Assembly: GCA_021325135.1 (NCBI GenBank)
Contig: JAJPHT010000039.1
Span: 64,001-128,000, forward strand
Length of the DNA: 64,000 bases
Direction of reading: 5' to 3'
From: Pseudomonadota bacterium
Lineage (GTDB): Archaea; Thermoplasmatota; SW-10-69-26; JACQPN01; JAJPHT01
A program made the translations under genes and the position numbers. Below are positions 47,333-64,000 of this stretch, one piece after another; the first letter of the stretch is position 1; each line of letters starts with the position of its first letter. The notes below the pieces were generated by a model, which was given only the letters and a program-made list of their open reading frames with translations, ran no database searches and was not told the DNA's origin.

Positions 47333-48039
47333 CCGGGGAGGAGCCCCTTCTCGCGCGCCGCGCGGAGCGCCGCCTCCTGGAGCGCCACGCGGTAGGCGAA
47401 GCCCCCGATGTCGGCGGCGCGCATGCGTGCATGCACGGCACCTTCCAGCTCCTCGGGCGAGAGCAGCACGACGGCCTTGATCTCGTTGGTGTCGCGCGGC
47501 TCCAGGGCGCCCCCCTGGGGCACGGCCCAGAAGACGTGGCTCTCCCAGTACTCCGGCTCGTCGGCCTTGGGGGGCGTCTCGGCGGCGAAGCGCGCCAGCG
47601 AGTCGAACACCCACTCGTCGCTGCGGCCGCGCCGGCTCGCCTCCGCCAGCGCGTGGGGGCTGGGCGTCGCGTGCGTGCCCAGCGTGAAGTGGCACGAGAC
47701 GCGCAGCAGGTAGTCCGTGATGCGGACCTTGAGCCCCGTCTCCTCGTAGGCCTCGCGCTCGGCCGCGGCGTCCAGGGGCTCGCCGGGCACGACGCCGCCG
47801 CTGGGGGGCCGCGCGACGCCCTCGGGGTAGCTGTGCTTCACGATGCAGACCAGCTTGCCTTCGAAGGGGATGAGGATGGTCGCGTCCCGGTAGCGCCCGT
47901 CGGTCTTGCTGAAGCGCAGCAGGTTGAACTCCCACTCGCGCATGGGCACGTCCAGGGTCATCTCGGAGGGCTCGCCGTAACGCTCCCGCAGGCGCGCCAC
48001 GTCCTCGCTGCGGCGGTGGGAGGGCGAGCCCTGGCTCAT
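47329..48039 (-). CDS. NUDIX hydrolase
   Basis: Nudix box GGVVPGEPLDAAAEREAYEETG. Confidence 0.9.
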   Translation of the reverse strand: MSQGSPSHRRSEDVARLRERYGEPSEMTLDVPMREWEFNLLRFSKTDGRYRDATILIPFEGKLVCIVKHSYPEGVARPPSGGVVPGEPLDAAAEREAYEETGLKVRITDYLLRVSCHFTLGTHATPSPHALAEASRRGRSDEWVFDSLARFAAETPPKADEPEYWESHVFWAVPQGGALEPRDTNEIKAVVLLSPEELEGAVHARMRAADIGGFAYRVALQEAALRAAREKGLLPG

Positions 48040-62225: not shown

Positions 62226-62471
62226 TCAGAAGCGACGGCCGCCGCCGCCACCGTAGCCGCCGCCACCGCGGCCGCCGCCGTAGCCGCCGCCCCGGCCGCC
62301 ACCGAAGCCGCCCTCACGCGGGGGGCGGTGCTTCTGGAAGCAGTCGCGGCAGTAGACGGGGCGACCCTCGGTCGGCTTGAAGGGGACCTGGGTCTGCTTG
62401 CCGCAGTCGCTGCAGACGGCGTCGAACATCTCTCGGGGGCCCGAAGGGGGGCCACGGTTTCCACCGTACAT
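62226..62471 (-). CDS. CxxC-x17-CxxC zinc-ribbon protein with RGG/GY tail
   Basis: REMFDAVCSDCG....VPFKP...RPVYCRDCF; GGRGGGYGG repeats. Confidence 0.92.
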   Translation of the reverse strand: MYGGNRGPPSGPREMFDAVCSDCGKQTQVPFKPTEGRPVYCRDCFQKHRPPREGGFGGGRGGGYGGGRGGGGYGGGGGRRF

Positions 62472-62648: not shown

Positions 62649-62759
62649 TCAGAAGCCGCCCCGGTTGTGGTGGTGCTTCTCGGCGTGGTTGTGGGGGGCC
62701 TTCTTCTCGGCTTCCCGCTGCATGCGGATCTGCTCCCGTTCGGCTCGGCGGAGGGTCAT
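62649..62759 (-). CDS. 36-aa small protein MTLRRAEREQIRMQREAEKKAPHNHAEKHHHNRGGF
   Basis: GGTGAT Shine-Dalgarno upstream; GC3-rich codons; below the ORF-track size cutoff. Confidence 0.65.
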   Translation of the reverse strand: MTLRRAEREQIRMQREAEKKAPHNHAEKHHHNRGGF

Positions 62760-62835: not shown

Positions 62836-62909
62836 CGCGCGCGTGCGCATATACGCGCGTGCGCGCGTGCGTACGCGTGGGTGACGCGCGCGGGCGCGCG
62901 CCCGCGCGC
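62836..62909. other. Z-DNA-prone alternating purine/pyrimidine tract (44 bp) plus 24-bp perfect palindrome
   Basis: 62836-62879 strictly alternates Y/R; 62886-62909 equals its own reverse complement. Confidence 0.8.
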
Positions 62910-62968
62910 CTAGGTTCGGAACCCACCCTTCTTGTACGATGGAGATGAACAGGTCAAACCTTCCTCCC

Positions 62969-62984
62969 CGAAAACGGTTAAGTC
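62969..62984 (+). promoter_or_regulatory. BRE/TATA-like promoter of topA
   Basis: cgaaaacggttaagtc about 40 nt upstream of the ATG. Confidence 0.5.
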
Positions 62985-63022: not shown

Positions 63023-64000
63023 ATGAAGATCCTCGTCGTCTCGGAGAAGGACATCGCCGCGAAGAAGATCGCGCAGCACCTCAGCGGCGGCGACTTCGAC
63101 CAGGAGAAGGTGGGCGGCGTCAACGTCTACAGCTTCACCGAGGGCAAGGGGAAGGCCAAGAAGGAGACGACCATCGTCGGCCTGCGCGGCCACATCGTCA
63201 GCCTGGACTACCCCAAGGAGCACCAGCGCTGGAGCCTCGCCAAGCTCCCCGAGCTGGTCTGGGCCGAGCCCACGAAGAAGGTGGACAAGGACGCGAAGCC
63301 CATCGGCGACGCGGTGAAGAAGCTGGGCAAGTCGGCGGACCTCGTCATCCTCGCGACCGACTACGACCGCGAAGGCGAGCTCATCGGCGTCGAGGCGCTG
63401 GACCTCATCAAGGAGGTCAACCCCGACGTGGAGGTGAAGCGCGCGCGCTTCAGCGCCCTCACCAAGGAGGAGGTCACGCGCGCCTTCGCGAGCCCCGCGC
63501 CCGTGGACCACAACCTGGCGGACAGCGCCGCCGCGCGCCAGTACGTCGACCTCGCGTGGGGCGCCGCGCTCACGCGCTTCCTCTCCATCAGCGCGGGCCA
63601 GCGCGGCCAGGACTTCCTCTCGGTGGGCCGCGTGCAGAGCCCGACGCTCGCCCTCATCGTGGACCGCGAGAAGGAGATCAAGGCCTTCGTGCCCACGCCC
63701 TACTGGGAAGTGCACGCCACGGTCCACAAGGACGCGACGTTCGGCGTGACGCACGACGAGGGCCGCTTCTGGGACAAGGAGAAGGCCACCGTCGCGCACG
63801 CGAAGGTCGCCACCGCCAAGAGCGGCACCGTGGTCAAGGTCGAGAAGAGCAAGCGCACGCTCCAGGCGCCCACGCCCTTCGACACGACGACCTACCAGCG
63901 CGCGGCCGCCGCGCTGGGCTACAGCATCAAGCGCGCCGACAGCCTTGCCGAATCGCTCTACACCGCGGGATACGTCTCGTACCCCCGCACGTCGAACACC
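63023..64000 (+). CDS. topA: DNA topoisomerase I (type IA), 3' end truncated by the window edge
   Basis: MKILVVSEK, GLRGHI, ATDYDREGELIG, RARFS, SVGRVQSPTL, AESLY..GYVSYPRT. Confidence 0.96.
   Translation, partial: MKILVVSEKDIAAKKIAQHLSGGDFDQEKVGGVNVYSFTEGKGKAKKETTIVGLRGHIVSLDYPKEHQRWSLAKLPELVWAEPTKKVDKDAKPIGDAVKKLGKSADLVILATDYDREGELIGVEALDLIKEVNPDVEVKRARFSALTKEEVTRAFASPAPVDHNLADSAAARQYVDLAWGAALTRFLSISAGQRGQDFLSVGRVQSPTLALIVDREKEIKAFVPTPYWEVHATVHKDATFGVTHDEGRFWDKEKATVAHAKVATAKSGTVVKVEKSKRTLQAPTPFDTTTYQRAAAALGYSIKRADSLAESLYTAGYVSYPRTSNT

Follow-up and report, generated by a model that had tools for sequence, protein, structure and literature searches.

Alternating purine/pyrimidine tracts upstream of topA and gyrB are candidate supercoil-responsive elements in archaea

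Introduction

The closest known case to the element described here is the bop promoter of Halobacterium, in which an RY box, or non-B-DNA element, was reportedly described by Yang, Kim, Molinari and DasSarma in 1996 (J Bacteriol 178:840; cited in PMC3184054 and PMC1447603). Both loci have an alternating stretch in an archaeal promoter region, and bop expression depends on gyrase-driven supercoiling. As at bop, the tracts that we describe adjoin promoters, one lying 60 bp before the BRE/TATA element of topA and the other 3 bp before the TATA box of gyrB. The bop element, however, is approximately 11 bp long and is located inside the core promoter of a light- and oxygen-regulated gene, whereas the topA tract is 44 to 74 bp long, is located upstream of the BRE and TATA elements of a topoisomerase gene and has a partner tract at gyrase. 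The initial annotation of this locus was aware of no such homeostat described in archaea; the bop promoter, with its non-B-DNA element, is nevertheless a precedent.

The closest known logic is that of the bacterial gyrase/topoisomerase I homeostat. In bacteria, the gyrA and gyrB promoters are stimulated by relaxation and topA promoters are sensitive to supercoiling (Menzel and Gellert 1983 cited in PMC3184054; PMC4770202; PMC6170449). There, as in the genome studied here, the promoters of both enzymes that set negative supercoiling contain a feature that is a candidate for sensing topology. In bacteria this role falls to the -10 element, the discriminator and the spacer of sigma-70 promoters, which are read by RNA polymerase, whereas we are dealing with archaeal promoters of the TBP/TFB type, in which a Z-prone tract is the candidate sensor.

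Negative superhelical stress flips CG-rich alternating tracts to Z-DNA, with approximately 0.18 turns removed per flipped base pair, and transcription is a source of negative supercoils on the upstream side of promoters. When d(CG)n inserts were engineered into Halobacterium plasmids, they reportedly formed Z-DNA in vivo (Kim, Yang and DasSarma, 1996, cited in PMC1971269), and inserts of this type reportedly did the same in E. coli (Rahmouni and Wells, 1989). The likeness to our case is that supercoiling in living cells, one of the hosts being an archaeon, can flip CG-rich alternating tracts as long as this one, above all when an active promoter lies downstream. The difference is that those inserts were engineered, whereas the topA tract is natural, conserved and located at a particular gene.

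For archaea, the question of how gene expression keeps supercoiling balanced is still open. A 2024 review of archaeal DNA topology mentions homeostasis, names no cis-element and makes no mention of Z-DNA (PMC11894792). In the literature open to our search, no paper reports such tracts at the topA or gyrB promoters of archaea, although the haloarchaeal gyrB tract may have been remarked on in the 1991 paper by Holmes and Dyall-Smith or in the 1996 paper by Yang et al.

Results and discussion

An alternating tract in the divergent promoter region of topA

The window analysed is a stretch of 64,000 nucleotides (G000:C23:64001-128000) of an uncultured archaeon of the phylum Thermoplasmatota, from an assembly (G000) of 3.77 Mb with 51 contigs and a G+C content of 72%. 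The initial annotation had drawn attention to 44 bp of unbroken purine/pyrimidine alternation that mixes CG, TG/CA and TA steps and is followed by a perfect 24-bp palindrome, and both features were confirmed (Table 1). Read as pyrimidine-purine steps, the 44-bp tract consists of 14 CG, five TG/CA and three TA steps. It has a TATAC-like centre within otherwise CG-rich sequence, and this centre is retained in all four genus relatives. The palindrome is also alternating, save for two breaks, and together with the tract it makes up a 74-bp segment (62836-62909). The first half of the palindrome contains a GC-rich core block that occupies the same position in G001, G004, G007 and G010.

As annotated, the element is non-coding and lies between divergent transcription units. 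It is covered by no ORF with the coding signature of this genome (GC3 >= 0.85) and is placed in a divergent promoter region, with topA on the plus strand and a small ORF and a zinc-finger gene on the minus strand. The 36-aa product of the small ORF is conserved in G002 (86% identity), in G004 and weakly in G003, and had no family match. The downstream gene encodes a type IA topoisomerase with the Pfam domains Topoisom_bac (1.9e-120), Toprim and Zn_ribbon_Top1 (a C4 zinc ribbon). It scored 854 bits against the NCBIfam DNA topoisomerase I model NF005555 (cut-off 635) and was likewise above the cut-off for topA_arch. It is the sole type IA topoisomerase gene found in the genome. No histone fold (PF00808) was found in this 94%-complete genome, and the Z-alpha domain (PF02295) had no match in it or in the control genomes.

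A BRE and TATA box are found at the same distance from the topA start in G004, G006, G007, G008 and G010. The TATA boxes are clearer in G006, G007, G008 and G010 and weak in the genus of the genome studied here. Because the BRE/TATA element recurs at this spacing in relatives, we took positions 62969-62983 to be the core promoter of topA, with the tract upstream of it. The gap between the end of the palindrome and this element is 60 bp, in line with the distance initially annotated.

Table 1. Features at the topA and gyrB loci and sites of a recurrent palindrome. Coordinates without a contig are positions in the window; those with a contig refer to assembly G000.
Feature	Position	Strand	Remarks
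Gene for 81-aa CxxC-x17-CxxC zinc-finger protein	62226..62471	-	Next gene on the divergent side
36-aa ORF, basic, His-rich	62650..62759	-	Protein conserved in relatives
Purine/pyrimidine alternation, 44 bp, unbroken	62836..62879	none	14 CG, 5 TG/CA and 3 TA steps
Perfect 24-bp palindrome	62886..62909	none	Arms 62886-62897 and 62898-62909
Short block between tract and promoter	62950..62957	+	Conserved in four genus genomes
BRE-like CGAAAAC, then weak TATA-like box	62969..62983	+	Approximately 40 nt 5' of topA start
topA, 5' part	63023..64000	+	ATG at 63023; full gene 726 aa, ends at G000:C23:129203, beyond the window
24-bp alternating tract at gyrB	G000:C40:65887-65910 (locus L037:3001-3024)		Outside the window; ends 3 bp before gyrB TTTAT box
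GTCACGTGAC palindrome sites	C6:48775-48830, C16:29071-29126, C50:8037-8091, C40:186881-186935, C33:115602, C1:9542		

The topA tract is the longest alternating run and the top-ranked Z-prone site in the genome

The 44-bp run is the longest alternating run in the 3.77-Mb genome, and the next longest are three runs of 24 bp. Genome-wide run counts approximately halve with each added base (497 runs of 12 bp, 223 of 13 bp and so on to three of 19 bp and three of 24 bp), and the 44-bp run is isolated from this distribution. Extrapolation of the decay gives an expectation of approximately 1e-7 runs as long as 44 bp in the whole genome, so that chance is no explanation for the run. Within the window, a 20-nt alternating pattern had 13 matches, compared with a mean of 0.22 in 100 dinucleotide-preserving shuffles, and 12 of these matches fall in the topA tract. 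The remaining match, at 47417, corresponds to the second window run of at least 20 bp (47417-47437, 21 bp), which lies deep in a coding region and is consistent with chance; the initial remark that the window holds no comparable tract is upheld. Across the genome, seven of the eight runs of at least 20 bp are not deep within genes, compared with 34% of runs of 12-19 bp. The 66% of these shorter runs that do lie deep within genes is approximately what the coding fraction predicts. Long tracts are rare rather than randomly common, and they are mostly found outside gene interiors. In prokaryotes, alternating R/Y patterns are generally suppressed (PMC4060949).

The topA tract has the properties by which Z-DNA-forming sequences are recognised, namely at least approximately 12 bp of unbroken R/Y alternation dominated by CG and CA/TG steps. 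Z-proneness was ranked genome-wide with a simplified Z-Hunt-type scan, not the full SIBZ calculation, assuming an infinite domain, two junctions (10 kcal/mol) and a superhelical constant of 1100 RT, with dinucleotide B-Z energies after Ho et al. 1986. At sigma -0.04 the 74-bp segment ranked first, its net gain being 18.2 kcal/mol (7.9 for the runner-up). In this simplified model it also has the lowest critical sigma in the genome, approximately -0.030, and its predicted B-Z transition falls within physiological superhelical density. The next three sites, with critical sigma between -0.031 and -0.032, are the gyrB promoter, C26:194 and C33:15495. The linear model fails at sigma -0.05 and beyond, where whole contigs "flip", and only the low-stress ranking is to be trusted for this reason.

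Alternation upstream of topA is retained in relatives

The order to which this genome belongs is represented by 15 genomes in our collection, and runs were scored within 320 bp upstream of topA wherever the 5' end of the gene was assembled. Alternating tracts upstream of topA are kept in seven of the 11 same-order genomes with an assembled 5' end. The runs measure 55 bp in G001, 33 and 28 bp in G002 (in which the contigs on both sides break inside the tract), 32 and 13 bp in G004, and 20, 12 and 12 bp in G007. G008 has a degenerate run of approximately 18 bp, and G010, which belongs to another family, has runs of 19, 16, 13 and 12 bp. G006, G009, G011 and G014 have no run upstream of topA. The same kind of tract in the same place was recovered from four relatives with independent assemblies. 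In G001 the topA tract is the only run of at least 24 bp in 2.7 Mb, and in G004 no other run is as long. The upstream neighbouring gene is different in G001, yet the tract remains with topA.

The tracts differ among relatives in length (from approximately 18 to more than 60 bp) and in sequence. They share only the GC-rich core block at the 3' end and the TATAC-like centre, and the flanks align poorly. The TopA proteins of the tract-bearing genera are only 52-60% identical. Alternation is therefore retained despite sequence turnover, which was the pattern to look for under the initial annotation; the genome-wide rank and the rarity of such tracts, two further checks that it had proposed, likewise came out in its favour. 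The tract-bearing relatives are kin, so their tracts do not count as independent events.

Outside these genomes the tract is absent or short. Among the matches listed, 80 distant topA loci (from methanogens, haloarchaea including high-GC ones, other Thermoplasmata and some Actinobacteria) were without any run above 14 bp over 400 bp of upstream sequence, those of 60-75% G+C included. A further 17 Thermoplasmatota genomes had no tract upstream of topA, with the exception of 17-19 bp in one family. The topA tract is thus limited to one order, plus these short versions in one other family. A metagenome search returned one close relative, cut at residue 166 and without upstream DNA.

Two G002 contigs, C30 and C102 (L003:1-61 and L233:1-50), end inside the topA tract. 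Where these ends overlap they disagree at a few positions, suggestive of variation between strains or of faulty assembly at the tract. C102 is the true partner, as it begins in the tract and carries the small ORF. The end of G002 contig C1, which has a 36-bp tract, was considered as the other half of the topA tract and rejected because unrelated sequence follows it. A 22-bp run on G003:C197 was also rejected as a candidate tract, as it lies inside a DnaJ-like gene and is attributed to chance.

The gyrB-gyrA promoter carries a tract of the same kind

One of the three 24-bp runs in this genome is located just upstream of gyrB-gyrA (Table 1). All four genus relatives have a 20-bp run at the same place (4/4), and shorter or multiple runs are present at gyrB in G006 (17, 27 and 19 bp) and G008 (17 bp). 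Elsewhere in Thermoplasmatota, the gyrB tract was found in 17 of the 18 genomes of family f8, in 10 of the 11 genomes of family f20 and in one genome of family f30, and eight other families have none. All eight haloarchaea, from several genera, have a gyrB tract; these are 12-18 bp long, one of them with a break, and lie 3-5 bp before the TATA box. Methanococcoides and one Methanomassiliicoccales genome have no gyrB tract.

Of the 41 gyrB tracts, 38 are distinct in sequence. Between families their identity is 0.816, and random alternating DNA with a matching mix of steps gives 0.806. As this is no better than random alternating DNA, what is conserved is the alternation and not a sequence motif.

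In this genome the topoisomerase genes with a tract are topA and gyrB-gyrA, and the topo VI operon has no such tract. Archaea with a tract at gyrB mostly have none at topA. Compared with the gyrB tract, the topA tract is two to three times longer and is located upstream of the core promoter rather than on it. The presence of the same kind of tract on the TATA box of the gyrase operon adds weight to the initial reading of the topA tract as a supercoiling sensor.

Two other features were observed upstream of gyrB. A conserved GGGATGCACC block follows the gyrB TATA box at a distance of approximately 50 nt and would fall within a long leader (family f20, G131; e.g., L258, L250 and L246). In four genus genomes (L040, L041, L042 and L043), a second strong TATA-like box (CTTATAAAG or CTTATATA) is located approximately 200 bp upstream of gyrB and is followed by a conserved GTTTCC...TGGA block. 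This second box may be the promoter of a small unannotated transcript.

A proposed B-Z transition and the alternatives to it

We consider the chances to be about even that the topA and gyrB tracts are supercoil-responsive B-Z elements, kept for their alternation, i.e., for their readiness to flip from B-DNA to Z-DNA. Transcription in the divergent promoter region would pile up negative supercoils at the topA tract. Once local negative superhelical stress exceeded a threshold (approximately sigma -0.03 in the simple model), the tract would flip, which would take up approximately 8 turns (44 bp) or approximately 13 turns (74 bp) and alter what binds there. At gyrB, the flip would reach the BRE/TATA element and shut the promoter when the DNA is too negatively supercoiled. 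With the BRE position overlapped by the gyrB tract, a flip should keep TFB/TBP from binding and so lower gyrase synthesis. The topA tract ends 15-60 bp before the BRE, which points to modulation rather than occlusion. A flip at topA might act by evicting a B-form binder or a chromatin protein, by changing local geometry or by buffering approximately 8-13 turns, and by homeostatic logic it would raise topA expression. We infer that the flip occurs in vivo and that it affects transcription of topA and gyrB, and we also infer the sign of this effect.

On a wider and more tentative view, to which we give somewhat less than an even chance, gyrase-bearing archaea would sense torsional stress via DNA shape without a dedicated regulator protein; the flip of an ancient tract at gyrB would shut off gyrase, and one Thermoplasmatota order would have recruited a much longer copy to topA. 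If the tracts are sensors, they would be a natural and conserved instance of Z-DNA that does clear physiological work in prokaryotes, and both opposing enzymes would rely on one and the same device. Their interest lies in the fact that the tract is conserved, pairs opposing enzymes and is directly testable, and the gyrB version is present in haloarchaea, a group with genetically tractable species.

In favour of the B-Z reading, the haloarchaeal genes for gyrase and type I topoisomerase change in expression when gyrase is inhibited (PMC3184054; PMC9348778). Several observations temper this reading. Long tracts lie at unrelated genes too, one for an AdoHcy hydrolase and one with a bactofilin domain, and within a repeat near orc1/cdc6, and in G005 and G010 alternating palindromic repeats are numerous at other places in the genome. 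In Halobacterium treated with novobiocin, expression of both gyrase and type I topoisomerase rose (PMC3184054). As both enzymes went up, opposite regulation is not established in archaea and co-regulation is possible.

The main rival is an operator whose alternating CG-rich DNA is read in B form, be it by a regulator, by a variant initiation factor or by a chromatin protein, with no role for Z-DNA. It holds this place because the core block is conserved at topA and is palindromic in this genome. The core block 3' of the tract, which is common to G000, G001, G004, G007 and G010, looks like a protein site, and the perfect palindrome that it forms in this genome is of the type that dimeric regulators prefer. 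In addition, the topA tract has one 14-mer in common with the gyrB tract, of which the whole genome contains only four occurrences, and the BRE position that the gyrB tract overlaps is where initiation factors bind. Nevertheless, we regard an operator as unlikely, given that gyrB tracts from different families resemble each other no more than random alternating DNA does, that the topA tracts vary widely in length and sequence, that the palindrome is not retained in relatives, and that no regulator gene accompanies the tract, G001 having a different gene upstream.

The tract could instead be transcribed or be a promoter in its own right, with the TATAC centre as a TATA box and the palindrome and downstream blocks as an RNA leader, either for topA or for the small divergent ORF. 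The TATAC-like centre is present in all four genus genomes, conserved blocks lie between the tract and the topA start, and the downstream TATA-like box is weak in this genus, all of which would fit. On the other hand, the BRE and TATA box approximately 40 nt before the start codon are conserved across the order and lie downstream of the tract, the spacing between the TATAC centre and the core block varies from 1 to 32 nt, and the putative leader folds no better than shuffled sequences (z -1.19). An Rfam search gave no match above threshold; those below it were to mir-297, mir-466, a CRISPR repeat model and an IRES, which is what low-complexity, self-complementary DNA would be expected to give. 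We therefore consider a transcribed leader or second promoter improbable.

It is very improbable that the tract is a functionless simple-sequence repeat, inherited from a common ancestor and maintained by slippage. Slippage does help to build the tracts, as internal block duplications distinguish G001 and G004, and the G002 assembly breaks in the tract, with contig ends that differ at a few positions. Tandem Repeats Finder also detected weak arrays (period 2 with 67% matches and period 8 with 70%). The step mix, however, is aperiodic. The general avoidance of such runs (PMC4060949) argues for selection. So does the parallel tract at gyrB, which reaches haloarchaea, and a neutral repeat would also have had to persist at one locus across genera whose TopA proteins are 52-60% identical and whose flanks can barely be aligned.

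Extrusion of a cruciform from the 24-bp palindrome, which the initial annotation had offered as an alternative to Z-DNA, can practically be dismissed as the active structure: although the palindrome is perfect and only ten perfect palindromes of at least 24 bp exist in the genome, it is perfect in this genome only and not palindromic in G001, G004, G007 or G002, its hairpin energy is no better than that of dinucleotide-preserving shuffles (z -0.83), a pure GC palindrome centre slows extrusion, and a cruciform would relieve only an estimated 2.3 turns or so and thus need approximately twice the stress of the B-Z flip.

Other palindromic and alternating elements

Several other palindromic or alternating elements were encountered in these genomes. 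Two gene-free copies of an element of approximately 360 bp (G000:C26:11-363 and G000:C45:67897-68253) are 90% identical and contain GC hairpins and a central alternating tract. The C45 copy is located approximately 370 bp past the stop codon of an orc1/cdc6 gene (C45:68622-69845), and this hairpin-rich element may be part of a replication origin. A 22-bp perfect palindrome with GTCACGTGAC half-sites occurs in at least nine places, often in pairs 34 bp apart (Table 1), and is probably a regulon operator or a small repeat family. G000 also contains perfect palindromes of 50-78 bp (C36:134590-134667, C17:27756-27819, C46:170290-170345, C42:17890-17945 and C36:51199-51248), three of which share a GTGCAC-containing unit and also rank high in the Z-DNA scan. 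A family of 24-bp alternating palindromes of the form GTGCAC...GTGCAC is spread genome-wide in G005, and G010 has AT-richer alternating palindrome units based on GTATAC, also genome-wide.
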